A DNA stretch of 64,000 nucleotides from Spirochaetia bacterium (GTDB lineage Bacteria > Spirochaetota > Spirochaetia > WTKD01 > G963693115), in assembly GCA_965226055.1 (NCBI GenBank), contig CBDDCA010000005.1, positions 64,001-128,000 of the forward strand, written 5' to 3'. The notes beneath the pieces were generated by a model. That model was not told the DNA's origin. It saw nothing but the letters and a program-made list of their open reading frames with translations, and ran no database searches. Positions 11,571 through 59,200 of the stretch are shown in pieces (position 1 is the first letter of the stretch; every line of letters starts with the position of its first letter). The position numbers and the translations under genes are program-made.

Positions 11571-14500
11571 CTACGATGAAGAACACGCTGTTTTATCAGC
11601 ACTGTCCTTTGGGTACTGTGCTTTTTTCCTATGCATTGCTGAGCCTTGAAATTCATCATCTGTTAATTGGTGGACTGAAAGTTTACACAATTTCCATGAT
11701 GATAAATCTTGATTAAATGCACTAGCTCCAAAAAACATAAAAACTATAGAAATAGCATTCCCTACATCCCAATTTCCTATATCTTGATCAAAAGCACTTG
11801 CTTGAAAAAACATACTACTCATAGAAGTAACACTGCTCACATCCCAATCTCCTATATCTTGATTAAATTTACTTGCTCCATTAAACATACTATTCATAAG
11901 AATAACACTACTTACATCCCAATCTCCTATATCTTGATCAAAAGCACTTGCTTGAAAAAATAGACCTACCATATTCGTTACATTACTGGTATTCCACTGT
12001 GTTATGTCTCCATTAAAAGTACTGTCTTTATCAAACAATTGTCGCATATTATCAATAGCACTGGTATCTATCATATTGAGGTTAGGGCTAGGGTTACTAC
12101 TCTTCCCTCCTGTAGCTTGCCTTGTTTTTTCTTCTCTGATAATAGTTTGTAGTGCTGATTTTGTTGTTGGTCTGTAATAGGTAGCTGCTTTTCCTGATGG
12201 TGCTGTTCTTAGCTCTGTTTGTATAACAATAGTCGCTGGTACTTTTTTCTTTGAAGCGGTAAGGGTACACTGTGCTACATTATAGCTATACTCAGTAATA
12301 TTAGGGTCACGTATATTGGACTTATTTGCTATGCCTGTTATGGTAACTGTTTTGCTACTCTGTTCAAACGATACTGCTAGCCCTGTCTCTTTTTTGATTT
12401 TCTCTGCATCTGCCTCTTGTATATTGGCATCACAGGTAAAGGCATTGCCACTGGGTGTGCTTGCTAATACTCTTGTAGTATTTGATGCGAGTGCTGTGCC
12501 TACTGTTGCTGAAACTATGCTAGTGTTTCCTATAGATATTGCACTTACTTCAAATTCATGGCGTTCTCCTGTTGATGCTTTTGTAGGATCGGTGCTGTTT
12601 ACTGCTTGTACTACTATTTCGTAGGTCGTTCCGTTTGTCAATCCTGTCAGGGTAGTGTTGGTTGTTCCTGCTGCTACTGTTGTGGGGCTTGAGTCTGCTT
12701 GTTTTATTGCTGCTACATTTCTTGCACTGCCACCTTTGGCTACTTTGTATACTTTGTACGATACCTGTGCTACTGTTAGGGTATCGCCTGTATTTGCTTT
12801 GTGGCTTGCACTGAGGCTGGGGGCTGTCCATGATACTCTCATACCGCCTGTTTGGGCTACTCTTGTTTGTATGCTTGTTACTTCTGCAGGGGCAGTCGCT
12901 TGCGATGCGGTCGTTACGCTTGCCACTGACGATGCTACTTTTTTGCTTGGGTCTGTTTTTACTGCTACCTCTACCACAAAGTAATACTTTGTCGCTCCTT
13001 TTACTGCTACTACTGGTGCTGTGTCTGATGACAAACCTAAACTGGCAAGGGCTGGTACTGTGTACACTCCGCTTGTTGCACTGCCTATGTTTACCTTTCT
13101 GCCTGCAAGTACCTCTGCTACTGTAGGGTTAGTGTCTTTCTGTAAGCCATACACTGTGTATACTAGCTTGTCATTTGCTATTATGTTTGTACCATCGTAG
13201 TCTTTCGCTCCTGTAAATGTGCTTAGCTCGGTAAGTACCAGCTTTATTGTGCCTGTAGTATTTGTTGACGGTGATACTACCAGCTTTCCTGTGAGTAATG
13301 ACTGGCTGGGTGCTACTGCTTTGGAAGTATAGATTTCTTTTATTTCTGTTACATCGGTGTAAAAGCCTGCAGGAAAGAGCTTGTCGCTATTTGTTGCATC
13401 GTAATTGGGGGATGTCGTGTTTACTATCCTTACTCCTATGTAGTAATCTTTTGCTGTTTCTATGGGCGTTGCTCCTGCATTGCTTCCACTGGTGCTGTCT
13501 ACTATTGCTATGGATATTGTGTCTTGAGTTGTTCCTGTTGCTTTTGTGTATTTTGCTACTCTCGTACTGCTCTTTTCTGTTGCCCATAGTGCTGATACGC
13601 TGGCAGGCTTTCCTGTGGTATCTTCTTTCTTGAGATATAGCACATAGTACGCAAGGTCTGTCGCTTCAAGGGCATTGCCATTTGCTTTGCTCACTCCTGC
13701 TATTGCTGAGGCATTGAGCTGTGCTGTTATGACTTTTTTCCCTCTGTTGCTTCCTGTTGTAGGCACTGCAAATACCACTGCATTACTGTTAGTGTAGGTT
13801 GTTACTTTTGGTGTGCTTGGGGGAGCGGTAAGCGTTGCTTTCTTTATTGTTACTGATGCTCCTATGCTATAGGCAGGATTGAGGCTGTTTATTGCTTCTA
13901 CTCCTGCGGTATAGTCTGCTCCTTTTGTTCCTATAAATGTTGCTTTTAATGGAGTGCTGTTTCCTGCTAGCTCTCTTGTTTGTACTCCTGCAAGGGCTTT
14001 TATTTCGTCTAGTGTTTTTGTGCTGTGGTCTCCTGCTGCTATGTATACTTTGTATTGTATTTGTGCCTGTGTGAGTTTGCTTCCGCTGGGTGCTTTGTTG
14101 GTATCAGTAATGTCTCCTGCACTAAATGTATAGACTGCTTTTGCAGTTGTTTGGGTTACTGACTCTACGGAGAGCTTTGCATCTTTGGGAGCGGGCGGTG
14201 CTGTCGAGGTGCTATCGTATACTGCTACTGCATCACTCAGTGCGGTTACGGGACTTACTCTGTTATTTGCTATTTGCAGAAAATCAAAGCGATAATTCTT
14301 GGCATTTGCTTGGCTCTTAGGTACTTCTAAGCCATCTGCTATCCCAAAGCTAATGGTGATTGCTGTGTTTGTTATGCTTTTTTCTGCTACCAGTGTAGCT
14401 CCATCTTTCATACGCAGGGTGTAGTATCGCCCTATGCCAGGAGCATTCTTAAAAATTGCTTTTATCTGCACTGCTCCTGTTGTATCTAATGTAGGCTTGC

Positions 14501-16336
14501 TTTGAAAGAGATCTTCTGAGGGAGCTGTGAGTGAGTTGGGGGTGGTTATGTCTTTTGTTGCTTGGCTACTTTTGTTTTCTGAGTAATCAAGCGTGAGTAT
14601 TGTTATGGTATATGTTTTGCCTTGCACAAGTTCTTCTACAGAGAGTGCTATCGTGGGATAGGGTATTTTCTTCTCGCTCAGTACTGCAGTGCTTGTGCCT
14701 TTTTCTGCTATGCTTATGCTGTATTCTTTTATGTCTTTGTTGTTGGCTTTTGTTGTATCGGGGGCTGTCCATGTTATCTGTGTGCCTATCTTTGCTGCTG
14801 ATACAAAGGGATAGCTTGCTTGTATGTTTGTCACTGCATCGGGGGCGGTGCTGTCTGCTGATGTGCTGACTGTGGCTGTTGCTTCTGTTCCTTTGTTGCC
14901 TGCACTGTCTATTGATACGACTGCCACTGTATACTCGGTGGTTGCTTTGAGGCCTGGTATCTGTGTATTGCGTACTGTTCTCTCTGTTATTGTCACTGTC
15001 TTTGCTGGAGAACTGCTGTCTTTTTCTGTTGCTGTTATAGTCACTCCTGCGTAGTCTCTTACATCGGGGGCTTGCCAGCCTACTACTAGGCTTGTTGCTC
15101 CTCCTACGGCACTCACATTGCTTACAGGTTCTGTGCTTTTGTCTGTTGTTGCTTGTTCTTTTGACACTGCAGTGGAATACTTTCCGTTTTGAGAAACATA
15201 CACCTCTACTTTGTAAGTAAGCGTGCCATAGAGTTTTGTGAGTGCTATGCCATCTTTTGCCACATACACAGTGGCGTATTCTCTGTTGTCTGCACTTGCT
15301 CCGCTGACATTGGTTGCACTTGTATCTTTATCTATTGTCTCTTCTGCTACTACTGTATTTGTTGCGGTTGCTATCACTCGTACTTGCAGGCTTTTTTCTG
15401 TACTTCCTGTTCCAAAGTCAAAACTCCCCCACTTAATAAGCAGGCTTTCATCGGCTGGACTATTGCTTTTATCGTTTGCTGTTACTGTAAGATCTGCCTC
15501 TGGCAGTGGCGTTACTGTTTGTGAGAGTGCTGATGGCACTATGCCTCTGAGTGCTTGCTTTGCCGTGCTTTTGTTACCGTTGCTATCTTTGTACACTACT
15601 ACTATATCATAGCTGATGCCGTCTATAGTAGGGACTGCAATGCTTACCTCTCCTTGTGTTACATCTTGTACTGTTACTTCTGTCTTTACCCCAGTAGTTC
15701 TTTCTATCACCTGTATTGTGGCTTCTGCTATGTCTGTCTTACCTGACGAGAGCAGTACTTTGTCCCATGTTAGCTTTATGCCATTTGTTGCCTGTTCTAC
15801 CGCTACCTGTGTAAAGGTGTCCTGTGGTGCAGTTTCATCTGTCAGTGTTGTCACAGAGCGTGTTGTTTTTGGTGATACTTCTGAGTTTGATTTTTGTGCT
15901 TCTATCTCTACCGTATAATCGGTAGTAGCGTGCAAGCCTCTGAGTGTGTAGGGTCTGTTTTGTTGAAACAATGCACGATATTCTATTGCAGGAACACGCA
16001 CTTGTATGGACTGTGCTGGTGCGGTAGATGTAGCTTTTACGACTACATGCGTGGCATCACTGGGAGCTTGCCAGCGTAACGAGAGCGTCCCATCGTTGCT
16101 TGCTGGTTCTATCTGCACATTGGACACTGATGCGAGTGTCGGGGTTACTGGCGTTCCCCCTCCGCCTGAGGAACTGCTACTACCCTCTGCACATCCTACG
16201 AGTACGAGGATAGTTATTGCTAGCACTGCTAGTATAGTTAGGTTTTGCTTATATCGAGAGTGTACCCCCCCCCCCCCCCGATTTTCAGGCTCTGTAGCTC
16301 CTTGCTTTTGTAGCTATCATTCATCAATACTTTCAT
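11571..16336 (-). CDS. giant Fn3/Ig-like plus DUF285 surface lipoprotein, paralog 1; frameshifted in a G15 tract (phase OFF as assembled)
   Basis: RBS AAGGAG and ATG at 16336 give MKVLMNDSYKSKELQSLKI, homologous to the paralog 2 N-terminus, but this frame stops at 16238. The long frame carries lipobox LVGC, a Ser/Gly tether, Fn3-like repeats and 25-aa W-D/N-V/T-S DUF285 repeats. Confidence 0.8.
16265..16279 (-). repeat. poly-G15 homopolymer in signal-peptide coding region (contingency locus)
   Basis: C15 on the + strand. G13 or G16 would join ATG 16336 to the long ORF. Confidence 0.85.
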
Positions 16337-16425
16337 AAAGATCTCCTTTTATTTTATTATCGTGTACTTATCAGTATACACAATAGTATTATAGTACAAA
16401 ATAGTATTTTTATGTCTATAGAAAA

Positions 16426-16458
16426 ATGGCAAGAAAAGAGCTTTTCCTTTCTTACCAT
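16426..16458 (-). terminator. intrinsic terminator between paralogs 2 and 1
   Basis: Minus-strand RNA AUGGUAAGAAAGGA...UCUUUUCUUGCCAU followed by UUUU. Two stem mismatches are G-U pairs on the minus strand only. Homologous to the hairpin at 11514. Confidence 0.7.
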
Positions 16459-16481
16459 AAGCTTGTATTTCTATGTATCTA

Positions 16482-19400
16482 CTATGATGTACATGCTGGA
16501 TCACCTTTACCTTTTGGATACTTGCTTGTTTTTCCTGCCATAGCTGAATTGTCAAACATAATGCTACTTATTGTTCCTTTACACATTTTCCATGATGATA
16601 AATTTTGATCAAATTTAGAAGCATTATAAAACATAGCAAAATTACGTTCAACATTCCCTACATCCCAATTTCCTATATCTTGATTAAAAGCATCTGTGCC
16701 TTTAAACATAGTATTTGTATTCTTTACATTGCTCATATTCCAATTTCCTATGTCTTGATTAAAAGCAGTAGCACTATCAAACATTGAAAACATATTAGTA
16801 ACCTTGCCTACATCCCAATTTCCTATGTCTTGATTAAAATTATTTGTGCTTTTAAACATAGATTGCATATCCTCTACATTACTAGTATTCCACTGTGTTA
16901 TGTCTCCATTAAAAGTACTATCTCTATTAAATAAACTATTCATACTAGTAATAGCACTGGTATCTATCATATTGAGATCAGGGCTAGGGTTGTTGTTCCC
17001 TCCTGAACCTTGCCTTGTCTTTTCTTCACTGATAATAGTTTGGAGCTTTGCCTTTGTTATTGGTCTGTAATAGGCTTCCGCTTTTCCTGATGGTGCTGCT
17101 TTTAGCACTGTCTTTATAATGATAGTAGCTGGTATTTTTGAAGAACCAACTGAACACTGTACTACATTATAGCTATATTCAGTAATGGCAATGTCATGTA
17201 TATTAGATTTATTTGCTATGCCTGTTACGGTAACTGTGTTAGTATTTTTTGAAAACGATACTGCTAATCCTGTTTCTTCTTTGATTCTCTTTGCATCTGC
17301 TTCCAGTATGGTGGCATCACAGGTAAAGGAAACGCTACTGGTCAGTATTCTCGTAGTATTTATTGCTTGTTTATTGCCTACTTCTGCTGAAACTACCATA
17401 GTATTTTCTATAATCACTGTTCTTGCTTCAAACTCATGGCGTTGTCCTGCTGATATTTTTGTGTCATCGGTGCTGTTTACTGCTTGTACGACTATTTCAT
17501 AGATCTTTCTGTTAGTCAATCCTGTCAAAGTAGTACTTGTTGTTCCTACCGCTATTGTTGTAGGACTTGAGTCTGCATTTTTTATCTGTGTTACTGTCCT
17601 CTGTATATCACCACTCTTGGCTACTTTGTATATCTTGTACGATACCTGTGCTGCTGTTAAGGTGTCTCCTGTATCTGTTTTGCGGCTTGCACTGAGGCTG
17701 GGAACTGCCCAAAATACTTTCATGCCTGTTTGGGCTACTCTTGTTTGTATGCTCCTTACTTCTGTTGGAGCAGTTGCTTGAGATGCAGTTGTTACGCTTG
17801 CCACTGATGAAGATGCTACTTTTTTGCTTGGATCTGTTTTTATGGCTACTTTTACCACAAAGTGATACTTTGTCGCTCCTTTTATTGCTATTATTGGATC
17901 TGTATCTAAAGACAAACCTAAACTGGCAAGGGCTGGTACTGTGTACACTCCGCTTGTTGCACTGCCTATGTTTACCTTTCTGCCTGCAAGCACTTCTGCT
18001 ACTGTCGGAGTAGTGTCCTGCTGTAGTCCATACACTGTGTATACAAGCTGATTACTTGCTGTTATGTTTGTTCCATCGTAGTTCTTTGCTCCCGTAAATG
18101 TGCTTAGCTCGGTGAGTGCTAGCTTTATTGTTCCTGTTGTGCTTGTTGATTGTGATACTACTAGCTTTCCTGCTAGTAGTGACTGATCAGGGGCTACTGC
18201 GTTTGAAGTATACACTTCTTTTATTTCTGCTACATCGGTGTAAAAGCCTGTAGGAAAGAGCTTGTCGATATTTGATGCATCATAATTGGGGGATGTCGTG
18301 TTGACTACTCTCACTCCTATGTAGTAATCCTTTGCTGTTTCTATAGGGGTTGCTCCTGCATTGCCTGCACTGGTACTGTCTACTATTGGTATTTGTATGA
18401 TCGCTTGATTTGCCACTCCTGTTGCTTTTGTGTACTTTGCTACTTTTCCACAGCTCTTTCCTACTGCCCACAAAGCTGATACACCAGCAGGCTTTTGATT
18501 TATATACTCTTTCTTGAGATACAACACATAGTATGCAAGATCAGTTGCTTCAAGGGCATTGCCATCTACTTTGCTTACTCCTGCTATGGCTGAGGCATTT
18601 ACTTGTACTGTTATGACTTTTTTTCCACTATTGCTTCCTGCCGTAGGCACTGCAAATACTACTGCATTATTGCTAATGTATGTTAGTTCTTTTGGTGCTG
18701 TGGAGGGAGTGGTAAGTGTTACTGTTTTTATTGTTGCTGATGATCCTGCTATGCTATACGAGGGATTGAGGCTATTTATCGCTTCTACTCCTGCGGTATA
18801 GCTTGTATCCTTCTTGCCTATAAATCTTACTTGTAAGGCACTGTCTCCTGCTATGTCTCTTGTTTGTACTCCTGCAAGGGCTTTTATTGCATCTAGTGTC
18901 TTTTTGCTATGATCTCCCTCTGCTATGTATACTTTATATTGTATTTGTGTCTGTTTGAGTTTACTTCCATTGGGAGCTTTGTTAGTATCAGTAATGTCGC
19001 CTGCATTAAACATATAGATTGCTGTTGCGGTTGTCTTTTTTTCTGACTTTACAGAGAGTATTGCATCCTTGGGGGCTGGTGGTGCTGTTGAGGTACTATC
19101 GTATACTGCTACGGTATCAGCAAGAGTGGTTATAGGACTAACTATATTATTTGCTATTATCAAAAATGTAAAGCGATAATTCTTGGTATTTGCTTGGCTC
19201 TTGGGTACTTCTACACCATCTGCTATACCAAATATAATATCTTTTGTGCCTCCTGTTGTGCTCTTTTCTGATACCAGTGTTGTGCTATCGTACATACGCA
19301 GGATGTAATATCGTCCTATGCCAGGAGCAGTCTTAAAGGTTGCCTTTATTTGCACTGCTCCCGTTGTATCAAGAGCAGGCCTGTTTTGAAAGAGATCTTC

Positions 19401-21227
19401 TGAGGGAGCTGTAGGTTGCGGAGTAGTTATGTCTTGTGTGGCTTGGGTGCTTTTATTTCCTGCGTAATCAAGGGTGAGTATTGTTATGGTATAGCTCTTG
19501 CCTTGCTTGAGTTCTTCTACAGAGAGTAATGTTATAGGGAAAGCTACTTTTTTCTCATTTACCACTGTAGTGTCTATGCCTTTCTCTGCTATGCTTATAC
19601 TATATTCTTTTATGTCTTTGTTATTGACTTTTGTCCCATCAGGCTCTGTCCATGTTATCTGCACTCCTACTTTTGTTACCGATATAAAGAGATAGCTTAC
19701 TTGTATATTTGTTACTGCATCGGGAGCTGTGCTATCGTCTGCGGTGGCTACTGTGGCATTTTCTGCTGTTCCTTTGTTGCCTGCCCTGTCCATTGATACT
19801 ACTGCCACTGTGTACTCGGTGTTAGCTTTTAGCCCTGTTATCTGCGTATTTCTTAGTGCTCGATCTGTTATTGTTACTGTCTTTGCTGCCGTGCTACTGT
19901 TCTTTTCTGTTACAGCTATACTCACTCCTGCATAATCTCGTACATCGGGGGCTTGCCAGCCTACTACTATGCTTGTTGCTCCTCCTACGGCACTTACATT
20001 GCTTACAGGCTCTGTGCTTTTGTCTGTTGTTGCTTGTTCTTTTGACACTGCAGTGGAGTACTTTCCGTTTTGAGAGACATATACTTCTACTTTGTATGTA
20101 AGCGTGCCATAGAGTTTTGTGAGTGCTATGCCATCTTTTGCTACATACACAGTGGCGTATTCTTTGTTTTGTGCAGCTGCAGAGTCTAGTCCTGCAGTAC
20201 TGCCATTACTTATAATTTCCTCTGCTATGAGGGTATTTGTTGCAGTTGCTATGATGCGTACTTGTAGATTTTTTCCTGTACTAAAGTCAAATCTATTATT
20301 TCTATCATCCCACCTAATAAGCAGACTTTCATCGGCCGGGCTATTGCTTTTATCGTTTGCTGTTACTGTAAGGTCTGATGCAGAAAGTGGCGCTACTGTC
20401 TGTGAGAGTGCTGATGGCACTATGCCTCTGAGTGCTTGCTTTGCTGTACTTTTGTTACCGTTGCTATCTTTGTATACTACTGCGACATCATAGCTAATGC
20501 CGTCTATGGTGGGGACTGCAATACTCACCTCTCCTTGTGTTACATCTTGTACCGATACTTCTGTCACTCCACGAGTGGTACTTTCTATCACCTGTACTAT
20601 GGCTTCTGCTATGTCTGTCTTGCCTGACGAGAGCAATGCTTTGTCCCATGTTAGCTTTATGCCATTGCTTGCCTGTTCTACTGCTACCTGTGTAAAGGTG
20701 TCCTGCGGTGCAGTTTCATCGCTAAGTGTTGTTACAGAGCGTGTTATTTTTGGTGATACTTCTGTGTCTGAGCCTGAGTCTGATTTTTGGGCTTCTATCT
20801 CTACAGTATAATCAGTAGTAGCAAGCAAGCCTCTGAGTACATAAGGTCTGTTTTGTTGAAACAATGCACGATATTCTATTGCAGGAACATGCACTGATAT
20901 TGATTGCGATGGCACTGTTGATATAGCAGTTACGACTACATGCGTAGCATCACTGGGAGCTTGCCAGCGTAACGAGAGCATCCCGTCATCGCCTGCCGCT
21001 TGTATCTGCACATTGGACACTGATGCAAGTGTCGGTATTACTGGTGGAGTTATCTCTCCTGATGAGGAACTACTACTGCTTTCTGCACATCCTAGCATGA
21101 AGAAAGTAATTACTACTAGCATCCATGCTAGTGCAACTATAGTTATATTCTGCCTATATTGAGGTTTATCTCCCATACCCCGATTTTTTTTCACACTTTG
21201 TAATTCCTTATCCATCCATTTTTTCAT
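16482..21227 (-). CDS. giant Fn3/Ig-like plus DUF285 surface lipoprotein, paralog 2 (intact)
   Basis: RBS AAGGAGG and ATG 21227 (MKKWMDKELQ). Lipobox MLGC followed by a Ser run. Colinear with paralog 1, with C-terminal DUF285 repeats. Confidence 0.88.
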   Translation of the reverse strand: MKKWMDKELQSVKKNRGMGDKPQYRQNITIVALAWMLVVITFFMLGCAESSSSSSSGEITPPVIPTLASVSNVQIQAAGDDGMLSLRWQAPSDATHVVVTAISTVPSQSISVHVPAIEYRALFQQNRPYVLRGLLATTDYTVEIEAQKSDSGSDTEVSPKITRSVTTLSDETAPQDTFTQVAVEQASNGIKLTWDKALLSSGKTDIAEAIVQVIESTTRGVTEVSVQDVTQGEVSIAVPTIDGISYDVAVVYKDSNGNKSTAKQALRGIVPSALSQTVAPLSASDLTVTANDKSNSPADESLLIRWDDRNNRFDFSTGKNLQVRIIATATNTLIAEEIISNGSTAGLDSAAAQNKEYATVYVAKDGIALTKLYGTLTYKVEVYVSQNGKYSTAVSKEQATTDKSTEPVSNVSAVGGATSIVVGWQAPDVRDYAGVSIAVTEKNSSTAAKTVTITDRALRNTQITGLKANTEYTVAVVSMDRAGNKGTAENATVATADDSTAPDAVTNIQVSYLFISVTKVGVQITWTEPDGTKVNNKDIKEYSISIAEKGIDTTVVNEKKVAFPITLLSVEELKQGKSYTITILTLDYAGNKSTQATQDITTPQPTAPSEDLFQNRPALDTTGAVQIKATFKTAPGIGRYYILRMYDSTTLVSEKSTTGGTKDIIFGIADGVEVPKSQANTKNYRFTFLIIANNIVSPITTLADTVAVYDSTSTAPPAPKDAILSVKSEKKTTATAIYMFNAGDITDTNKAPNGSKLKQTQIQYKVYIAEGDHSKKTLDAIKALAGVQTRDIAGDSALQVRFIGKKDTSYTAGVEAINSLNPSYSIAGSSATIKTVTLTTPSTAPKELTYISNNAVVFAVPTAGSNSGKKVITVQVNASAIAGVSKVDGNALEATDLAYYVLYLKKEYINQKPAGVSALWAVGKSCGKVAKYTKATGVANQAIIQIPIVDSTSAGNAGATPIETAKDYYIGVRVVNTTSPNYDASNIDKLFPTGFYTDVAEIKEVYTSNAVAPDQSLLAGKLVVSQSTSTTGTIKLALTELSTFTGAKNYDGTNITASNQLVYTVYGLQQDTTPTVAEVLAGRKVNIGSATSGVYTVPALASLGLSLDTDPIIAIKGATKYHFVVKVAIKTDPSKKVASSSVASVTTASQATAPTEVRSIQTRVAQTGMKVFWAVPSLSASRKTDTGDTLTAAQVSYKIYKVAKSGDIQRTVTQIKNADSSPTTIAVGTTSTTLTGLTNRKIYEIVVQAVNSTDDTKISAGQRHEFEARTVIIENTMVVSAEVGNKQAINTTRILTSSVSFTCDATILEADAKRIKEETGLAVSFSKNTNTVTVTGIANKSNIHDIAITEYSYNVVQCSVGSSKIPATIIIKTVLKAAPSGKAEAYYRPITKAKLQTIISEEKTRQGSGGNNNPSPDLNMIDTSAITSMNSLFNRDSTFNGDITQWNTSNVEDMQSMFKSTNNFNQDIGNWDVGKVTNMFSMFDSATAFNQDIGNWNMSNVKNTNTMFKGTDAFNQDIGNWDVGNVERNFAMFYNASKFDQNLSSWKMCKGTISSIMFDNSAMAGKTSKYPKGKGDPACTS

Positions 21228-21438
21228 AGATGCCTCCTTGTTGGTTATTTTATTATGTGTATTATTATACATACGAATAGTAAAGATAATATTATTTTTA
21301 TGTTAAAATAGTATTATTTTTATTTTCTTTTTTATGTTTATTTCTTGAGGCTGATCCATTTAGGGTACTAGTGTGAATCATTCCCTCTATTATTTTCATT
21401 GAAGTAATGATACTATTTTTGATATAATAAAAGAAACT

Positions 21439-23213: not shown

Positions 23214-23214
23214 C

Positions 23215-24570: not shown

Positions 24571-24667
24571 AAATTATGGTTTTCTTTATTATTATATTGA
24601 ATAGTAAGTATAATGACTATTATATATTAGGAAACAGTTAATACAATTACTGAATAATACAATATAT

Positions 24668-24740
24668 TGAGCCGCGCAGGATTTGAACCTGCGACCACCG
24701 CCTTAAAAGGGCGTTGCTCTACCAGCTGAGCTAGCGGCCC
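24668..24740 (-). tRNA. tRNA-Lys(UUU)
   Basis: GGGCCGCTAGCTCAGCTGGTAGAGCAACGCCCTTTTAAGGCGGTGGTCGCAGGTTCAAATCCTGCGCGGCTCA; anticodon TTT. Confidence 0.95.
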
Positions 24741-24743
24741 AAT

Positions 24744-24815
24744 CATCTCCTAGGGGAGTTGAACCCCTGTTGCAAGAATGAAAATCTTGAGTCCTAACCA
24801 CTAGACGAAGGAGAC
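24744..24815 (-). tRNA. tRNA-Glu(UUC)
   Basis: GTCTCCTTCGTCTAGTGGTTAGGACTCAAGATTTTCATTCTTGCAACAGGGGTTCAACTCCCCTAGGAGATG; anticodon TTC. Confidence 0.95.
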
Positions 24816-24826
24816 AATTTAATCTT

Positions 24827-28300: not shown

Positions 28301-28685
28301 TTTTAAAATTAATGATAGTATGTTTTTTTATCATTTCATTTAATTCTGGGACTATTGATGATTCTTTGACATATAATTTATATACCAATTGATCATTACT
28401 CGTTATATTTGTTCCATCTCTATTTTTCATATTAGTATATTTTTCTAAAGAATATACTGTTAGATTTATCGTTTCTATATTTACTCCTTTACCAAGAGAA
28501 ATTTTATTCAATAATAAAGAAGGATCAGCAGCTACCGATAGGGATATATCACCACCACCTCCATTCCCTCCCCCATTATTAGAAGATAGGTTGCTAGAAC
28601 TTTTATTTTTTTCACAATTAATTAAAGTCATACTTACTGGTGTTAATATTATTATTAACATTAAAAACATTACATTTTTTTTCAT
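25392..28685 (-). CDS. DUF285/Fn3 surface lipoprotein, paralog 3 (divergent, AT-rich, two DUF285 blocks)
   Basis: RBS AAGGAG and ATG 28685, lipobox LINC, S/G/N tether. Shares the stalk module (DGTNITSNDQLVY, IKTDMSK) and has two WDTS/WNTS repeat arrays. Confidence 0.85.
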   Translation of the reverse strand: MKKNVMFLMLIIILTPVSMTLINCEKNKSSSNLSSNNGGGNGGGGDISLSVAADPSLLLNKISLGKGVNIETINLTVYSLEKYTNMKNRDGTNITSNDQLVYKLYVKESSIVPELNEMIKKHTIINFKNGKLEYINETEIDGVNFEEQKTYHFMFSVQIKTDMSKITYSNIKSISLGSKATNPPGFNNNKILKTNSTETSISLQWRGALLPFDDTHLDNEENQLTKQNIIYKVYKLKENKIENNDVDAVIISDRNPIVLKAQQEGITITGLMPNTTYNIVLQSVNNTDVSKVTNSQLFEFNTDEPISLQFREENSDIFITEKRLVSQGNYGKEKITKIESIILPESINTDRGTFSISPDDLSKTFGLTFNKLDGSISGIATKMGNRRYTIGFTSEDNRTVSKTIDLIIGYKHIPLDSSELIADITQEIDIQGISADLNIIDTSNVKSFSNLFSSKLSKDVYDFKDKNTNKIYEFSGDISKWNTSNVTNMNSTFYGVTRFKSDLSNWDTSNVTDMTELFSQVNLQSGAFIHGVENWNTNNVLKANRILYSGLYFYDHDFSSWNMCRITLTDSDFHVRIKDVYADDLYIPKNKRPNFKGSPICGTIDNTTKIPPEVSNFSFKFISSGINMIWDYPTIDSEIHKNNDGDILSISEISYILYVKKLDDDEFGYDYDLDRIKNEGVAINIPANTKKHLLDDVYAETSYAIAITSVNETDKTKVSNGKTQHFETWKLVIDYDLNIARANFNVGDSVNKKLIIGATVLEKRIVNGNQQWTRSNNKRVSLNSSFTFDKADLDRLKHDTGLTASFSNNTVHITGIVNKSNFYDSKITNRKYGKIRFTIPNWNVTKDLTVNVNTKLVKVGGRSATFYRPTSNKELLRVIELLEKDKEVENLRLVDTSEVVDMSKLFVNKDYNPNVSNWNTSKVTNMKFMFMRSTKFNRDLSNWDTSKVNDMGGMFEEASSFNGNISNWDTSRVNDMDQMFKNATNFNQDISNWDTSKVYNMTSMFEDTEQFNQDISGWNISSIRFMKFMFKNSQKFDQDLSKWRINKTVFEKSYGKDVSWNTGIDKPLYGHIHIKFLENSFVSIPMEGKRNTYPTFQ

Positions 28686-44035: not shown

Positions 44036-44036
44036 A

Positions 44037-51430: not shown

Positions 51431-54400
51431 CTATATTCGTCTACAAAGGGGGTTTGTACGTATATTTAATATTGTTGGATATTGATTTTTCTTATTATAC
51501 ATAGGACTATCCTTAAACATATCTTTATCATCAACAGTACTACCAGGTTCTAAACATAAATTCCATTTTGATAAATTTTGATCAAATGCCCTTGCTTCCT
51601 CAAACATACTAGTAAATTTTACTCTATTATATACTACCCAAGCCGATATATCTTGATTAAATTTTAGAGCACCATAGAACATGGTAGTCAAATTTTGAAC
51701 ATTATTCACTACCCAAGTCGATATATCTTGATTAAATGTTTCAGCAGACACAAACATAGATGACATATTTTGAACATTACTTACATCCCAATCCGATATA
51801 TCTTGATTAAATTTTAGAGCACCATAGAACATTTGTTGCATATCTGTCACTTTACTTACATTCCATTTCGATATATCCTTATCAAATACAAAAGCTCTAT
51901 TGAATAATAATGACATATCCGTAACTTTACCTGTATTCCAATTTGAAATATCACTATTAAACACCTCTAACTCATGAAACATACCAAACATATCCGTAAC
52001 TTCACTTGTATTCCAATTTGAAATATCCCCATTAAATGTCTTCTTTCTTAAATTTCTATATACAAACTTATCTCGTGTATCAAATAAATTTTCCATATTA
52101 GTAATAGCACTGGTATCTATCATGTTAAGATTAGGAGCATTTCCTTGTGCCTTTACCTCTGCATCTATAATATCTCTCAACGCATTCTTTGTCGTTGGCC
52201 TATAGTAATTAGCTGCTTTTCCTTGTACTGCTTGTAGCCCTGTTTGTATTGTAATGCTACGCCTTTGCTGTCCTGCATGAGATCCTGTTCCTGTACATAC
52301 TAAAGTGTATTTATACTCTCTAATAAAAGGATCATGCTCATTTGATTTGTTAGGCTTGCCAGTGATACCATCTCTTACAGAAAATTGCAAGCCTGTCTCT
52401 TTCGTTAGTGCATCAATAGTACAGCTAAACGTTGCATTGCTTGGATCTTTTGTTATCGTTATTGGCGTAATAGCAGTACCTACTGTATATGTACTATTAC
52501 TATTTTGCAACTCTATAGTAAAGGTTGCGGTGGTAACACTTTCTGCAGAAGTAGGGGCAGATCTATTGTTTATAATGCTATTTACTGCCTCTACGGTAAT
52601 AAAGTACTTCTGTCCTTTGTTGAGATTGCCTAGTACATATATTGCTTTCGATGTTACATCAGTTTTTACTCCTCCTACTTTTGCATCTTGATTGCTTCCT
52701 TTTGCTTGCTCTGCCTGTGCTTGTGTTTTTACCTGTGCTGCTGTCAAGGTACTTGTCGATGCATAGTAGTATAATGTATAGTTTAGCTCATCCTCTGTCA
52801 ATCCTGTACCATCTGTCTTTGTTCCTCTAAAACTCGGTGCAGTAACATCTACCTCTATTGTATTGCCATTTGCTTCTAGTGCTACAGTAGGGGTATTAGG
52901 CGCTGCTCCTTGTGCTGTCTTAAACTCTGCTCTCTTACCATCTGACATTTTTGTGGTATCGGTACTGTTTACTGCTTGTACTACTACTTCGTAATTTACT
53001 CCTGCTTTAAGGCTTGTCAATCCTGCTGTCTTTACATTTGCTCCTATTGTCATAGGACTACTATCTGCTGCTTTAATCTGTGCTACTGTTCTTGCTGTTG
53101 CTCCTTTTTCCGCATGATACACTTTATATGACACTTGACTGGCTTGCAATGCTGTCCCTGCCTTGTTCTTATAATTATTCCCTAATGTAGGCGCATCCCA
53201 TTGCACCGTTGCCGTGCCATTTGCTCCCCCTGAAATTGAAGTAAAAGTAATAGCATTTACCTCAGCAGGAACAAGGGTATCTACAAGAATACTTTCCACA
53301 TCTGACACTACCTTTACATCAAGATCTGTTTTTACTGCTATTTGAAATACAAAATGATATCGCTTTCCTTTAATAGAAGCTCCGCCTACTGTTGAAAGTG
53401 CATTTAGTGTATATTTTCCTCCTGTTATTGTAGATCCACTTAGTGTAGGAAGTGCTATTTCTGATCCCTTATCTATCACTTCTTGTGCAGCAGGCACTGT
53501 ATCCTGTTGAAGACCAAATACCCTATATACTAACTTATTATTATCGTATATATTACGTCCACCTCTTTCTTGTGTTTCTACTCTATCTAATCCAGAGCCA
53601 TAAGAAAATGTAGACAGTTGTGTCAATACTAGCTTTATCGCTCCTATTGGGGATGACTGTGATACTGCTAACTTATTTACAATCAATGCCTTATGGGGAG
53701 CTCGTGCCTGTGATACACTTTTTGTTGAGGTAGCCTCTTTTACATTGCTATATACTACTTTTGTTGCATCTGTTAGTATTGCTACTTCTACCACAAAATG
53801 ATACTTCGTTGCTGATTCCAAAGCAAAGGAGAAAGAATTAGCAAAAAGGGATATTCCTTGCTGAAGAGGCCTTAGGTTTATTTCTGTTCCCTGACGAACT
53901 TCTGTTGCTGTTGGCACACTTCCTGTATCTTTTAGCATATATACTTTGTATCCAAGATCTCCATTTGCAGTTACAGATGTTCCATCAAATTTCTTTGCAC
54001 CAGTAAATGCAGTAGCCAGAGTAACTTCGAGGCTAATACCACCTCCCCCTATACCAGCATTTGTTGTTAGTGTGAGGTTATCTGCTATCACTGATTGATT
54101 TAGAGGGGCTGCTTGAGACACTGTTATCCTTTGTACCGTACTGTATACTCTTTTTCCTGGTGCTCTTGCTATTGCTACCTCTGCCACAAAATGATACTTC
54201 TTGCCTCCATCTAGGTCTATTTGTGCTGCTGAATCGCTTGTTAGCCCTAGCTTATCCAACGCTTCCACTGTGTACTTGCCTCCACTTACTGTGCCTATGG
54301 CTATTTTTCTTCCATTGCTTACTATCTCTTGCACATTTGCTGGGTTCGTATCTTTCTGTAAGCCGTACACGGTATATACAAGATCACTGTTATCTGTTAT

Positions 54401-57400
54401 TGTTTGTCCTGTACTGTCTTTTGCATTCGTAAACTGTGTCAGTTGTGTGAGCTCTAGCTTTAATTTTTCTACTGTACTTGATTGTCCCAACGATAGTATA
54501 TTGTTCACTAAGGATTGTTCTGGCGGTACTGCTGGTGATACTGTAATGCTCTCTATAGTACTCAATACTTTTTTTGTCTTGTCTGTTGCCACTGCTACCT
54601 CTGCTACAAAATGATACTGCTTGCCTACTACAAGCGATACTTGTGCTGCTGAATCGCTTGTTAATCCTAGCTTATCCAATGCTTCTACTGTGTATACTCC
54701 TGCAGTGTTTGCTCCACTGGCACTGCCTATGGCTACTTTTCTTCCATTGCTTACTACTTCTTGTGCATTTGCTGGGTTCGTATCTTTCTGTAAGCCGTAC
54801 ACTGTGTAGCTCAGCCCTGTGTTATCGTTTATCGCTGCTCCTGTGTCTGCTTTGAGTCCCGTAAAACTTGTCAATCTTCGTAATGTGAGCTTTACGGCTC
54901 CTGTGCTACTTGATTGTTCCATAGAAAAATTACCAGACAATGCCCCTGCTGATGGTGCTACTGCTTCTGAATCTGTCGTCACACTTTCTACATTGCCTAC
55001 TACTTTCTTGGTCATATCTGTTGCTACTGCTACCTCTACTACAAAATGATATTGCTTATTGCCAAGTATCCCTACTTGTGCTGAAGAGTCTGTAGTAAGC
55101 CCTAACTTATCTAAGCTATTGACTGTATACTTGCCTGCACTTACTGTGCCTATGGCTACTTTCCTTCCTGCAAGTACTTCATTTTTCGTAGGTGTGGTAT
55201 CTTTCTGTAAGCCGTACACTGTGTAGCTCAGCCCTGTGTTATCGTTTATCGCTGCTCCTGTGTCTGCTTTGAGTCCTGTAAAGCTCGTGAGTACTGTTAC
55301 TTCTAGCTTTACTTCTCCTACTGTTGTCGATTTACTCACTGCTAATATATCGTTCACTGAGGACTGCTGAGGTGCTACTGCTTTTGACGCTGTCTTTACT
55401 GTCTCTACAGTACTGTACACTTTCTTTGTTGTATCTGTTTTTACTGCTACTTCTGCGACAAAATAGTAATCTCTGTTGCCTTGTATCGTTTCTACTGAGG
55501 GACTTGCTCCGAGTGTTGTGAGTGCATTGATTGTATACTTTCCGCCACTTACTGACCCTAATGCTACTTTCTTGTTATTGTTTACTATATCCTGTATACT
55601 TGGGGCTGTTCCTGTCTTTTGTAGTCCATATACTGTATAGATAAGTCCTGCATTGCTAGTAATATCTACTCCTACATCATCTTTTGCATTCGTAAATTGC
55701 GTCAATACTGTGAGATCTACTTTTACTGCTCCTACTGTTGTTGATTTACCTACCACTAATATATCGTTCACTAAGGACTGCGCAGGTGCTACTGCTTTTG
55801 ATGACAGTACTACCGTCTTTATTGTTCCTACTACTTTCTTTGCCACATCTGTCTTTATTGCTACTTCTACTACAAAATGATACTGCTTTCTCTCTACTAT
55901 ATCTATTTGTCCTCCTGCATCTGTGGTAAGCCCTAACTTACTCAAGCCAGAGACTGTATACTTACCACCTCTTGCACTTCCTATAGCTACTTTTCTCCCG
56001 TTTGTTATTACTTCTTGCCTATTTGCTGGGTTCGTATCTTTCTGTAAGCCATATACCGTATATACCAGTCCTGCATTACTGGTGATTGCTGTTCCTGTAT
56101 CGTCTTTTGCTTGTGCACTTGCAAAGTTTGTCAACTCTGTGAGTTCCAAGTCTATCGTGCCTGTTGGTATTGGGTTTGTTTCCTCTACTGTCAAGAGCGG
56201 GTTTATTGCAATTTGTAGCGGTGCTTTTGCTTGCGAGCCTGTTGTCACACTTTCTACTGCTCCGTATACTTTCTTGGTCGTATCTGTTTTTACTGCTACT
56301 TCTACCACAAAATGATATTGCGCTTTCCCTTTTATTGCTATTTGTACCTTTGGCGTTTCGCTTGTCAAGCCTAATTTATCTACTCCATCCTGGGTATACT
56401 TGCCTCCACTTGCACTTCCTATGGCTACTTTTCTTCCATTGCTTACTACTTCTTGTGCATTTGCTGGGTTCGTATCTTTTTGCAAGCCATATACGGTATA
56501 TACCAGCCCGTCATTATTGGTTATCGGATTTCCTGACGCATCTATTGCATTGGTAAATGCTGTCAACTCGGTCACTTCTATTTTTATTGTCCCTTCTCTT
56601 GTCAGTGACTTACTCACTGCTAAGATATCATTCACTAAGGACTGGGCTGGCGGTACTGCTTGTACTCCTTCCATTGTCAGCTTCTTTATTGTTCCTGCTG
56701 TTCCGCTTGCCACTTTTGTGCTATTGAGTGTATTTATCGCTGCTACTCCTACCGTATAGGTCTTTTTGTCTTCTCCTGCAAAGGTGATGCTGTGCTTGGT
56801 CGCACTATTGCTTCCTTGTACCACACGGCTTCTTACTCCGCTTTCTGCTTGTATTTCGTCTAGGGTGCTATGGTCTCCTTCTGCTATGTACACTCTATAC
56901 TCTACTTGTGATTGTGATAACTCCGTCCCTGCTGGTGTTTTATACGATGCTCCAAATGTTCCTATACTAAACTCATAGATCCCCTTAAATGATTGTGCTT
57001 CTTTCAAGGTTGCTGCACTGGGCATAGGTGGGGCTGTCGATACACTATCCCATACTTTGAGCTTTGTGCTTGCTATGTCTGTTGCGGGACTTACTTGCCC
57101 GCCTTTTATTTCTATTAGAAAAAACCCATACTCTTTTGCTGTTCCTTCTGTGCTTGCTACTTCTAGGCCATCTGCTATCCCAAAGTATACTTCTTTTGTA
57201 CTTCCTGTTATGCTCTTTTCTGCTATAACTGTTGCTCCTTCGTTCATCCTTACTCGATAATAAATACTACTTCCAGGGCCTGTCTTAAATGCTACCTTTG
57301 CTCTTATTGCTCCGCTCTTATCAAGCGTAATCCCTTCTACTCCATCCTTTGAGGGGGCCGCCAGTGCTGCTGGTACTGTCACCTCTGCTGTTTTTTCACT

Positions 57401-59110
57401 CTCGTTTCCTGCATAATCTTTACTCAATATCTTTACTTCGTAGGTCTTTCCTGATTCTAAACTTGCTATTTCTTTATAGAAACGGGTCGCTGGATACTTC
57501 ACTGCTGTCGATGGCAACACTTCGGTATTGGGGGCTTCTTTCTCTGCTACACTTACTAGATATTCTTTTATGTCTTGATTTTTCGCAAGTGTAGTATTTG
57601 GTGCTCCCCACTCTATACGCAACGCTTTCTTGCCTCCTGAAAGTACTACTTTACTGGTGATACTTCCTACGGCATCAGGTGCTTCTGTATCTGCATTTGT
57701 GAGCGTTGTCACTTCTTTTTCTGCTGCTGCTCCTTCGTTATCAGCACTATCAAGCGATACGACTTTCACCTTGTATTTTGTTGCTGCTTCCAAGCCTGTT
57801 ATTTCGGCATTCCTTACACTACTGCTCCTTATCGTCTCTGTCTTTACTACTGTTATCCCTTGCATTACTGTTATCTTTACTCCTGCATAATCTCCTACTT
57901 GCGGTGCTTGCCAGCTTACTATCACTCTAGTTTGCCCTGCTACTACTCCCACATTTGTTACTGTTTCTGTCTGCTTATCGGTGGTTGTTCCTTCTTTCTC
58001 TACTGCCGTATAGTATCTCCCGTTCTTATAGGGTCGCACTATCGCTTTGTAGCTCTGTACTCCATAGAGCTTGGTTACTGCTACGCCATTCTGCCCTACA
58101 TACAGCATCCCTTTTTCTTCTGTCGCATTTGCTACTTGGGCAACACTGTTTTTTGTCACACGGGCATCTGCTACTACTTGTCCCGTGCTTGTCTCTACCA
58201 CTACCAACAGTTCTACTTCACCGCTTACATCGTAATTCCCCCATGTAATAAGCAGACTCTCATCTGCTGCTGCTCCTGTTTTATCTTTTGCTTCTACTTT
58301 TACATTTGATGCTTGTAACGCAGGCACTGCTTCTCCGAGCTTTGAGGGATCTATATCTGTCAATTCTTCTTTTATGCTTGCTTTGTTGCCATTGATATCT
58401 TCATAGACTATCTTTACATCGTAGCGTACATTACTGCTTGTCGCTACCGAAAACGCAAGTTCTCCGCTCTCTATATTGGTTATTTCTTTTTTCGCTACTA
58501 CCTCTCCTGATGCATTTTCTATTTGCACTTCTGCTTTGCTTATATCGGTTTTGCCTTTCCCTAGCCTCTTTGTGTCCCATACTACTTTGAGCTGGTTGTC
58601 TCCTGCTTTCTCTACTCCTACATGAAAAAAGCCATCTTGCGGGGCAGTGGTATCCGCTGCGGTAATAATTTCTTGCGATACCTTTGACGACTTCTGACTT
58701 CCTGATTGCGCTTCTACCTCTATCGTATAGGCGGTATGCTCTTTCAAGCCTTTTAGCTCGTATTTTAGCCTTCCCAAAAAGAGTTCTTTATATTCCTGTG
58801 CGGGTACTGTTACGCTAAAAGACTGCCCTGTAGTGCCTACGGGACTTGCGGTGATGACCACACTGTCTGCTGCTACTGGTGCTTCCCAGCTGAGCTCTAG
58901 TGATCCATTATCTGATACTGATGTTATTGATAAATCTGATACTGACCCAAGTGTTGTCGGTGTCGGTGGAGTAGGATCAGACCCTCCTCCTGATGAACTG
59001 CTACTACTATCTGTACATGCTATGAGTATAGCAGCTATCACTATATATACGAGAAAAGAGAGTTTACCCCCCCCCCCCCACATTTTTTGTGTTATATTAT
59101 TTCTTATCAT
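51431..59110 (-). CDS. giant Fn3/Ig-like plus DUF285 surface lipoprotein, paralog 4 (2559 aa; G13 tract in frame)
   Basis: RBS AAGGAG; N-terminus MIRNNITQKMWGGGGK...ILIAC followed by a Ser/Gly tether. Eight stalk repeats of about 140 aa and C-terminal DUF285 repeats. Confidence 0.9.
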   Translation of the reverse strand: MIRNNITQKMWGGGGKLSFLVYIVIAAILIACTDSSSSSSGGGSDPTPPTPTTLGSVSDLSITSVSDNGSLELSWEAPVAADSVVITASPVGTTGQSFSVTVPAQEYKELFLGRLKYELKGLKEHTAYTIEVEAQSGSQKSSKVSQEIITAADTTAPQDGFFHVGVEKAGDNQLKVVWDTKRLGKGKTDISKAEVQIENASGEVVAKKEITNIESGELAFSVATSSNVRYDVKIVYEDINGNKASIKEELTDIDPSKLGEAVPALQASNVKVEAKDKTGAAADESLLITWGNYDVSGEVELLVVVETSTGQVVADARVTKNSVAQVANATEEKGMLYVGQNGVAVTKLYGVQSYKAIVRPYKNGRYYTAVEKEGTTTDKQTETVTNVGVVAGQTRVIVSWQAPQVGDYAGVKITVMQGITVVKTETIRSSSVRNAEITGLEAATKYKVKVVSLDSADNEGAAAEKEVTTLTNADTEAPDAVGSITSKVVLSGGKKALRIEWGAPNTTLAKNQDIKEYLVSVAEKEAPNTEVLPSTAVKYPATRFYKEIASLESGKTYEVKILSKDYAGNESEKTAEVTVPAALAAPSKDGVEGITLDKSGAIRAKVAFKTGPGSSIYYRVRMNEGATVIAEKSITGSTKEVYFGIADGLEVASTEGTAKEYGFFLIEIKGGQVSPATDIASTKLKVWDSVSTAPPMPSAATLKEAQSFKGIYEFSIGTFGASYKTPAGTELSQSQVEYRVYIAEGDHSTLDEIQAESGVRSRVVQGSNSATKHSITFAGEDKKTYTVGVAAINTLNSTKVASGTAGTIKKLTMEGVQAVPPAQSLVNDILAVSKSLTREGTIKIEVTELTAFTNAIDASGNPITNNDGLVYTVYGLQKDTNPANAQEVVSNGRKVAIGSASGGKYTQDGVDKLGLTSETPKVQIAIKGKAQYHFVVEVAVKTDTTKKVYGAVESVTTGSQAKAPLQIAINPLLTVEETNPIPTGTIDLELTELTNFASAQAKDDTGTAITSNAGLVYTVYGLQKDTNPANRQEVITNGRKVAIGSARGGKYTVSGLSKLGLTTDAGGQIDIVERKQYHFVVEVAIKTDVAKKVVGTIKTVVLSSKAVAPAQSLVNDILVVGKSTTVGAVKVDLTVLTQFTNAKDDVGVDITSNAGLIYTVYGLQKTGTAPSIQDIVNNNKKVALGSVSGGKYTINALTTLGASPSVETIQGNRDYYFVAEVAVKTDTTKKVYSTVETVKTASKAVAPQQSSVNDILAVSKSTTVGEVKLEVTVLTSFTGLKADTGAAINDNTGLSYTVYGLQKDTTPTKNEVLAGRKVAIGTVSAGKYTVNSLDKLGLTTDSSAQVGILGNKQYHFVVEVAVATDMTKKVVGNVESVTTDSEAVAPSAGALSGNFSMEQSSSTGAVKLTLRRLTSFTGLKADTGAAINDNTGLSYTVYGLQKDTNPANAQEVVSNGRKVAIGSASGANTAGVYTVEALDKLGLTSDSAAQVSLVVGKQYHFVAEVAVATDKTKKVLSTIESITVSPAVPPEQSLVNNILSLGQSSTVEKLKLELTQLTQFTNAKDSTGQTITDNSDLVYTVYGLQKDTNPANVQEIVSNGRKIAIGTVSGGKYTVEALDKLGLTSDSAAQIDLDGGKKYHFVAEVAIARAPGKRVYSTVQRITVSQAAPLNQSVIADNLTLTTNAGIGGGGISLEVTLATAFTGAKKFDGTSVTANGDLGYKVYMLKDTGSVPTATEVRQGTEINLRPLQQGISLFANSFSFALESATKYHFVVEVAILTDATKVVYSNVKEATSTKSVSQARAPHKALIVNKLAVSQSSPIGAIKLVLTQLSTFSYGSGLDRVETQERGGRNIYDNNKLVYRVFGLQQDTVPAAQEVIDKGSEIALPTLSGSTITGGKYTLNALSTVGGASIKGKRYHFVFQIAVKTDLDVKVVSDVESILVDTLVPAEVNAITFTSISGGANGTATVQWDAPTLGNNYKNKAGTALQASQVSYKVYHAEKGATARTVAQIKAADSSPMTIGANVKTAGLTSLKAGVNYEVVVQAVNSTDTTKMSDGKRAEFKTAQGAAPNTPTVALEANGNTIEVDVTAPSFRGTKTDGTGLTEDELNYTLYYYASTSTLTAAQVKTQAQAEQAKGSNQDAKVGGVKTDVTSKAIYVLGNLNKGQKYFITVEAVNSIINNRSAPTSAESVTTATFTIELQNSNSTYTVGTAITPITITKDPSNATFSCTIDALTKETGLQFSVRDGITGKPNKSNEHDPFIREYKYTLVCTGTGSHAGQQRRSITIQTGLQAVQGKAANYYRPTTKNALRDIIDAEVKAQGNAPNLNMIDTSAITNMENLFDTRDKFVYRNLRKKTFNGDISNWNTSEVTDMFGMFHELEVFNSDISNWNTGKVTDMSLLFNRAFVFDKDISKWNVSKVTDMQQMFYGALKFNQDISDWDVSNVQNMSSMFVSAETFNQDISTWVVNNVQNLTTMFYGALKFNQDISAWVVYNRVKFTSMFEEARAFDQNLSKWNLCLEPGSTVDDKDMFKDSPMYNKKNQYPTILNIRTNPLCRRI
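53280..56660 (-). repeat. 8 tandem coding repeats of about 410-430 bp
   Basis: Recurrent motif AP.QS....L.V..S...G..KL.LT.LT.FT...YTVYGLQKDT...RKVAIG...YHFVVEVA..TD..K. Boundaries approximate. Confidence 0.85.
59067..59079 (-). repeat. poly-G13 homopolymer in signal-peptide coding region
   Basis: C13 on the + strand, encoding WGGGG. In frame. Confidence 0.88.
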
Positions 59111-59150
59111 ACATCACTCCTTATGATATAATTTTATTTTTATCATTTAC

Positions 59151-59200
59151 ATTATACATATTATTTCCTATTTTGTCAATATAGATAAAAAAAAAAAAAA
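59151..59200 (-). promoter_or_regulatory. consensus sigma70 promoter with an upstream T14 tract
   Basis: TTGACA (59179-59174), 17-nt spacer, TATAAT (59156-59151). T14 at 59200-59187. Confidence 0.75.

Follow-up and report, generated by a model that had tools for sequence, protein, structure and literature searches.

The window analysed here, meaning the whole 64-kb stretch of DNA, comes from a spirochaete genome designated G000; a congeneric sister genome, G001, was used for comparison. The window contains four long open reading frames on the minus strand, all of which encode predicted giant lipoproteins with a DUF285 head and two of which have a long run of G between the start codon and the lipobox. 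A first-pass annotation had described these four as paralogs and had proposed that they belong to a switchable repertoire of adhesins or antigens with members that are ON, OFF, or locked. All four frames were present where that annotation had placed them, and blastp coordinates for the family showed that its members in the window are exactly these four. A paralog was scored as ON or OFF, as assembled, by comparing the frame of its ATG with that of its lipobox Cys codon. The genes and their tracts are as follows.

11571..16336, minus strand: paralog 1, class A, OFF as assembled (ATG at 16336, stop at 11571-11573)
16265..16279, minus strand: G15 tract of paralog 1, in the region that codes for the signal peptide, between ATG and lipobox
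16191..16193, minus strand: lipobox Cys codon of paralog 1 (LVGC), read directly, followed by a Ser/Gly-rich tether
16482..21227, minus strand: paralog 2, class A, in frame with a decayed tract (ATG at 21227)
21170..21182, minus strand: interrupted G run of paralog 2, CGGGGTATGGGAG, homologous by alignment to the tract of paralog 1
25392..28685, minus strand: paralog 3, 1097 amino acids, lipobox LINC, no tract and a different leader (ATG at 28685)
51431..59110, minus strand: paralog 4, class-B giant of 2559 amino acids, ON as assembled (ATG at 59110)
59067..59079, minus strand: G13 tract of paralog 4, between ATG and lipobox
59017-59015, minus strand: lipobox Cys codon of paralog 4, in frame

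The ATG of paralog 1 is preceded by a ribosome-binding site, and the frame that it opens ends at a TAA (16240-16238) 32 codons on. The lipobox lies in a different frame, which is open for 1563 amino acids behind the tract. By frame arithmetic, paralog 1 would be ON with a tract of G13 or G16. The interrupted run of paralog 2 aligns both with the tract of paralog 1 and with the G16 tract of the syntenic gene in G001. The promoter of paralog 2 has no long tract, and the gene appears locked on its coding side. Alignment and direct reading agreed that the tract of paralog 2 is interrupted at the homologous spot and that paralog 3 has none. The three states that had been proposed were each found, with paralog 4 in frame, paralog 1 out of frame, and paralog 2 in frame with a decayed tract. 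The G15 and G13 tracts, both on the minus strand and both in the interval between start codon and lipobox, are the only G/C runs of at least nine bases in the window, as had been noticed at first reading; no such run occurred in 100 shuffles.

Long homopolymer tracts in two genomes

To place these two tracts in context we scanned the whole of G000. The lengths of its G/C runs were bimodal. Counts dropped about six-fold per added base up to a length of 8, and extrapolating this decay gives about 0.02 expected runs of at least 11 bases, compared with 31 observed. The genome holds 32 runs of at least nine bases, one of 9 and 31 of 11-20. The enrichment in leaders of DUF285 lipoprotein genes that the first-pass annotation had anticipated was found: in 21 of the 32 cases the run separates the ATG of a family gene from its lipobox (15 class A, 3 class B, and 3 class C), and a further two runs are placed upstream of family gene frames, at a distance of about 110-130 nt. 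Unrelated genes do not have long G runs equally often. The other nine fall in classic phase-variable categories. Four are near the 5' ends of type I S-subunit genes, one of which was confirmed as Methylase_S. A G15 run ends a type III mod gene (N6_N4_Mtase and TypeIII_RM_meth) that is followed by res (L135, G000:C6:564200-567800), two runs are in the last codons of HtrL_YibB-like genes, and two are upstream of a Big_5 lipoprotein gene. The runs near the four S-subunit genes are in poly-C orientation. Together, the type I S-subunit and type III mod systems are candidates for phase-variable methylation.

Measured against a generous target of 0.68% of the genome, the 21 of 32 leader runs give a binomial P of 3e-38, a value that is overstated because the paralogs are not independent. 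A stronger argument than this P value is that three unlike leaders have a tract at one functional spot and that the remaining tracts are in textbook contingency classes.

The housekeeping DNA of G001 is 96-97% identical to that of G000, and G001 has 43 tracts of at least 11 bases. These include 34 in class-A-type leaders, two in class-B leaders, one upstream of a family gene, four upstream of a Big_5-type lipoprotein gene, and one in an hsdS-like gene. The 36 leader tracts are at the same site as in G000 and range from G11 to G18; between the genomes the site of the leader tract is kept and its length is not. The longest tract by a wide margin is a G41 run of G001, whose context does not resemble that of any other (L124, G001:C1:1976600-1977200).

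We then compared the frames of these leaders in silico. For the 56 leaders considered, ATG and lipobox share a frame in one of three length classes, and in the other two the frame meets an early stop. The leader frames of G000 were 5 ON and 15 OFF, with one that could not be scored at a contig end; those of G001 were 8 ON and 28 OFF. The total of 13 ON among 56 is no different from one third (p = 0.12), and the idea that the ON fraction is below random was rejected on this count. Behind the tract, each of the 15 OFF genes in G000 still has an intact open frame, of 1526-2536 amino acids, which rules out ordinary pseudogenes.

As a clock for the tracts we used an ungapped comparison of 260 flank bases anchored at the tract. 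Two class-B genes of G001 differ at 1 of 260 flank bases and have G15 and G18; two class-B genes of G000 differ at 4 of 260 and have G15 and G13. Among paralog pairs with at most 8 flank differences, tract lengths differ in two of four, and among those with 16-26 flank differences they differ in 18 of 18. These comparisons indicate that the tracts change faster than their flanks. Tract lengths are therefore not invariant, since they differ between paralogs and between the two genomes over a range of G9-G18.

In G001, the place of paralogs 1 and 2 is taken by one gene, which has a G16 tract and is ON (L133, G001:C1:1349500-1366600). For this comparison the locus was set against window positions 10154-28768 and 59323-60899. 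The G001 gene is like paralog 1 at its head end (90%) and like paralog 2 in its 5' half and flank (84%), and unequal recombination is thus a further process that remodels the family. Two further differences were seen around this locus. An IS30-like transposase frame lies in G001 between the paralog 3 orthologue and leuC, and the window segment from about 28.8 to 59.3 kb sits elsewhere in G001.

Runs of A/T in G000 were also bimodal, with 29 of at least 12 bases compared with 0.11 expected. Among the 29 are 22 poly-T runs (T14-T27), which share a conserved position upstream of family promoters. Most of them belong to genes with no poly-G in the leader, and the three class-B genes each combine poly-T with poly-G. 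Counting both types, a long tract accompanies no fewer than 42 of the 76 family frames in this genome. In the window, the class-B gene shows the following arrangement.

59151..59179, minus strand: sigma-70-type promoter of paralog 4, with TTGACA (59179-59174), a 17-nt spacer, and TATAAT, matching 12 of 12 consensus positions
59187..59200, minus strand: T14 tract of paralog 4, ending 7 nt upstream of the -35 box

The other two class-B genes have T17 and T20 at the matching place. Because the T14 tract is upstream of a perfect -35 box, it is likelier to be a modulator than a switch. A spacer homopolymer of the Vlp type is absent from paralog 4, where the T14 tract lies outside the fixed 17-nt spacer. 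At another family gene (G000 C5:621165), a T19 run lies directly before a TATAAT-like box. A separate T30 run (G000 C6:742767-742796) has no family frame starting within 56 kb of it.

The flanks of the long G tracts follow a strict rule. TA comes directly after 73 of the 74 tracts of at least 11 bases (30 of 31 in G000 and 43 of 43 in G001), compared with 6 of 31 and 1 of 43 in the mirrored control. In G000, a pyrimidine directly precedes the tract in 32 of 32 cases. In the window, the TA lies at 16263-16264 for the G15 tract and at 59065-59066 for the G13 tract. Short G runs of 3-8 bases in G000 have TA next in 8-19% of cases, and for G8 in none of four. Among 28 tracts of at least 10 bases in three other spirochaete genomes, the next base was A, C, or T in 13, 9, and 6 cases, respectively. 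The pyrimidine-G(n)-TA rule applies in about nine unrelated contexts, whichever strand is coding, and is therefore no codon effect. It is conceivable, if rather doubtful, that a sequence-specific process restricted to this genus creates, positions, or preserves the long G tracts. A dedicated enzyme could be the cause, as could a mobile 'switch cassette' or second-order selection favouring the flank at which slippage is greatest. Each of these would be new, and the strictness of the rule could bear on the origin of hypermutable tracts.

Architecture, size and setting of the family

The first-pass annotation had given all four proteins a lipobox Cys, a Ser/Gly tether, a stalk of Fn3/Ig-like domains, and a head of DUF285 repeats, which in the reading adopted here is C-terminal and has a hypervariable tip. 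DUF285 (PF03382) scored 171.7, 183.5, 237.1, and 292.8 bits, above the Pfam cut-off of 25 in all four. Fn3 was over its cut-off in three; for paralog 3, where the score was 23.0 compared with 25 bits, the stalk assignment fell short. The PARCEL repeat (TIGR02167) was also over its cut-off in three of the four, and in paralog 3 the DUF285/PARCEL repeats begin at about residue 490. A lipobox Cys after a hydrophobic stretch was found both by direct reading and with a regular expression, and the proteins are predicted to be lipoproteins. Pairwise identity in the stalk is 72-94% across 35 class-A-size paralogs and drops to 58% and then 43% over the last approximately 130 residues.

A structural model of the last 442 residues had a predicted local distance difference test score (pLDDT) of 84.1 and contained an Fn3 domain and further beta domains. 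The Fn3 domain of the stalk matched NCAM2 with Z 12.1 and a root-mean-square deviation (rmsd) of 2.8 Å over 97 residues. Because Foldseek and VIA-align searches with this model matched the Fn3 part only, the head was folded alone. The resulting model (pLDDT 90.2, predicted template modelling score 0.85) is a solenoid in which a short strand recurs every 25 residues. Its best 50 VIA-align matches were all leucine-rich repeat (LRR) proteins. The head scored Z 12.0 against 4fs7 (rmsd 4.4 Å, 162 residues), 10.8 against TpLRR of Treponema pallidum, and 10.5 against a Leptospira LRR protein. In repeat folds such values indicate class and not kinship, and a Z under about 13 may reflect no more than a common arrangement. 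Foldseek gave no match to the head at E 0.001 or better (best E 0.2), a search of PDB sequences gave none at E 0.01 or better, and no Pfam LRR family, including LRR_5, matched any of the four window proteins at E 0.01 or better. The modelled head is LRR-like, and this likeness is at the level of the fold only. Together, the Pfam and structural results confirm the Fn3 stalk and the LRR-like DUF285 head. Based on the fold and on the DUF285/BspA precedents given in the excerpted text of PMC8707762, the head is predicted to have a binding role, and it may bind host or microbial ligands. The fold suggests likewise that these putative surface proteins could act as adhesins or antigens.

G000 comprises 2,249,164 bases in 6 contigs with 35% GC. 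It encodes three matches to FlaA, a hallmark of spirochaetes. A search with the MurC locus found one close relative (94%) and 79 other loci that are distant. Sequencing runs that contain DNA of the window are labelled as coming from the gut or faeces of animals. With the four heads as queries, blastp found 76 open frames of at least 200 amino acids in G000, which make up 334,422 nt or 14.9% of the genome, and DUF285 had 249 Pfam matches. In a collection of 5.8 billion proteins, where the 8000 candidates sharing most words were scored, 67 of 72 matches were full-length relatives with both stalk and DUF285, and all of these were on contigs of G000 or G001. The leader DNA had no copy in the 39 other relatives searched. 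Taken alone, the DUF285 domain is frequent in Spirochaetia (32 of 151 sampled genomes and 22 of 87 genera). The family is best read as one of genus-specific giant lipoproteins. The next three matches in the protein collection (P0069-P0071), on other contigs, share the Fn3 stalk and are about 45% identical to the query over 63-80% of its length. In two of these, Kelch-repeat heads replace DUF285, and the third shows nothing but Fn3, a pattern that suggests exchange of heads on a shared stalk.

The neighbours of the four genes in the window are housekeeping genes (rpe, adk, murC, gpmA, sufS, sodA, alr, Bat-like genes, leuCD, and ilvD), so the family genes are not in an island. Between paralogs 3 and 4, at 42096-46910, VWA and MoxR-like genes with weak BatA/BatB matches resemble a Bat-like aerotolerance operon. 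Each of paralogs 1 and 2 is followed by a palindromic hairpin, as listed here.

11514..11541, no strand assigned: palindromic, terminator-like hairpin downstream of paralog 1, with a near-identical twin at 16428-16456
16428..16456, no strand assigned: palindromic hairpin downstream of paralog 2

Four sequencing runs, from three samples of one study, hold about half of the sampled words, only as short-read contigs. These contigs match the window flanks with no differences, and their summed depth is 100-430 in the collapsed family genes compared with 4-7 in the flanks. A joint of opposite strands at 11503-16469, reported in all four runs, was considered as an inversion. We rejected this because the joint is explained by the near-identical palindromic hairpins after paralogs 1 and 2.

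Proposed frame switching and its alternatives

We consider it likely that this giant lipoprotein family consists of contingency genes whose frames are switched by slipped-strand mispairing at poly-G. Three of the four checks that the first-pass annotation suggested favoured the proposed repertoire, which is supported by the run scan, the reading frames, the domains, and the structural models, and from these we infer the switching itself, including a change of tract length within populations. Slipped-strand mispairing at replication would add or remove G in the tract that encodes the signal peptide. One length class in three would then join the ATG to the lipobox, and the other two would stop within a few codons. 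Genes would flip between ON and OFF independently and heritably, so that each cell line would display a small, changing subset of tips. The poly-T tract just upstream of the promoter, found in a second set of members and in the class-B giants, probably tunes transcription. Members in which the tract is decayed, such as paralog 2, or was never present, such as paralog 3, would be outside poly-G switching. Recombination between paralogs probably adds to switching and does not replace it.

An alternative is that slippage occurs at the RNA level. Here the polymerase would stutter on the tract to give a minority of in-frame transcripts, and the tract would be a permanent attenuator that keeps the protein level low. 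The DNA-level frame seems unselected (13 of 56 ON compared with one third), which fits this idea, and intact OFF genes are also expected if the frame of the DNA had little effect. For A/T runs, slippage of transcription on long homopolymers is reported as established (PMC1088944, in its excerpted text). By contrast, lengths that differ between near-identical paralogs and between two genomes show that the DNA itself slips. The remaining tracts in G000 are in typical DNA-level contingency genes, and in the G-tract system of Bifidobacterium breve expression is described as decided by DNA length (PMC9187656). We therefore regard RNA slippage as an unlikely explanation for the tracts, and one that can coexist with a DNA switch.

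It is quite improbable, in our judgement, that the OFF copies are silent donor cassettes, in which case variation would come mainly from recombination or gene conversion, the OFF copies would be a reservoir, and the tracts would be by-products. The 72-94% identity of the stalk over 35 paralogs suggests concerted evolution, and the chimeric G001 gene, with its paralog 1-like head and paralog 2-like 5' half, also speaks for this reading. A reservoir role has been proposed for silent drp genes of Mycoplasma agalactiae (Nouvel et al., PMC2824730). However, each tract-bearing copy has its own ribosome-binding site, ATG, full predicted signal peptide, and frame of 1526-2536 amino acids, unlike promoterless cassettes. 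The position of the tract is kept in 56 leaders of two genomes and its length is not, and decayed tracts are exceptional, with three counted among the family leaders.

That sequencing or assembly created the long G runs or their frames is extremely improbable: homopolymers of 13-18 bases are hard to size on all platforms and the annotated B. breve G11 is reported not to be the major form in culture (PMC9187656), but the tracts occur at the same sites in two separately recorded assemblies (31 and 43 of at least 11 bases), with conserved flanks, bimodal lengths, and only a few gene classes involved, and an artefact may shift a length by one and not create tracts.

Several observations weigh against frame switching as proposed, or against the surface role of the products. 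MutS1 and MutL are intact in both genomes (in G000 at C3:70942-73497 and C6:113366-115081, respectively) and should damp slippage. Mycoplasmas, which also use such tracts, are not known to have mismatch repair. Intact mismatch repair may be the reason that the tracts here are longer than the G8-G13 of mycoplasmas. One of the closest paralog pairs, with 2 of 260 flank differences, shares G14, and one gene scored as ON (G000 C5:412491) is truncated to 505 amino acids. Within the family genes the contigs of the four sequencing runs are fragmented; no contig was reported to span the G15 tract, and no indel was listed at it. Tract lengths in the assemblies are consensus values that are error-prone at such length, which makes the ON and OFF calls soft. 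The B. breve G11 tract is reported as 37% G11 and 60% G12 in a one-colony culture, and the authors caution that annotated tract lengths can mislead (PMC9187656), a caution that applies equally to the calls made here. Spirochaete lipoproteins can also face the periplasm.

Comparison with known systems

The closest known case is in M. agalactiae, where Roske et al. (2010; PMC2996958) describe PARCEL lipoproteins with N-terminal poly-G and Nouvel et al. (2010; PMC2824730) describe the drp family, with 12-13 drp genes and tracts of G8-G13. As far as the excerpted texts of these papers describe them, the two systems have in common with the spirochaete genes a lipoprotein signal peptide, DUF285/PARCEL repeats, a G tract near the 5' end of the coding sequence that would shift the frame, and members scattered over the chromosome. 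Few of the M. agalactiae members are reported to be expressed at a time (PMC2996958, PMC2824730). The spirochaete proteins differ in being 1100-2800 amino acids long with long Fn3 stalks, and the family is larger, with 76 frames (14.9% of the genome) compared with 12-13 drp genes. There are 21 to 36 tract-bearing members per genome, their tracts are G11-G18 compared with G8-G13, and the host is a diderm with intact mismatch repair. The four window proteins scored 98.9, 92.9, 168, and 127.3 bits against NF045896 (Mbov_0838 family), below its cut-off of 500, and are thus not members of that family.

PARCEL genes are listed among the contingency lipoprotein genes of the M. mycoides cluster (PMC2996958, citing Wise et al., 2006). 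The spirochaete family resembles this cluster and the Vlp system of M. hyorhinis in what would be a combinatorial ON/OFF display of lipoproteins through simple repeats at the 5' end. In those mycoplasma systems, the repeats are homopolymers or dinucleotides and belong to promoters. The repeats of Vlp and Vmm are in the spacer that separates the -35 box from the -10 box, whereas the T14 tract of paralog 4 is upstream of a perfect -35 box.

Among spirochaetes, the poly-G tracts of Treponema pallidum tpr, TP0126, and TprL are upstream of the genes and act on transcription. The likeness to these is that a spirochaete has G homopolymers at genes for candidate outer-surface proteins. By contrast, the tract here is intragenic and would act on the reading frame, and the proteins are unrelated. 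These T. pallidum promoter tracts were the only spirochaete poly-G systems found in the literature searched, from which subscription journals were absent, and in the same literature we found no spirochaete DUF285/PARCEL proteins and, for spirochaetes, no lipoprotein switches with poly-G in the coding region. The matches there included papers on mycoplasmas, one of them on M. bovis.

The sortase-dependent pilus switch of B. breve is similar in that a gut commensal uses an intragenic G10-G11 tract in the first gene, slippage at which is reported to restore the frame, for surface attachment (PMC9187656). As described there, B. breve has two loci per genome that encode pili, whereas the spirochaete has dozens of loci that encode lipoproteins. 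BspA-like LRR proteins (Bacteroides ovatus BACOVA_04585, 4fs7; Tannerella BspA; and Treponema denticola LrrA) are cell-surface binding modules to which the modelled head has a likeness at fold level, with no match at the level of sequence.

If the switching is real, a gut spirochaete with a small genome could display an enormous number of combinations of LRR-tipped stalks from at least 20 independently switching genes and about twenty more with a promoter tract. It would then be among the largest single-family phase-variable gene sets seen, in a bacterium with intact mismatch repair, and would give a handle on how uncultured commensal spirochaetes meet host antibody, phage, and changing attachment sites. 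The pairing of a PARCEL head with a poly-G leader would be extended from wall-less mycoplasmas to a diderm phylum, and its occurrence in both points to convergence or to transfer of the whole design. The kind of switch is known; its clade and its scale are new.

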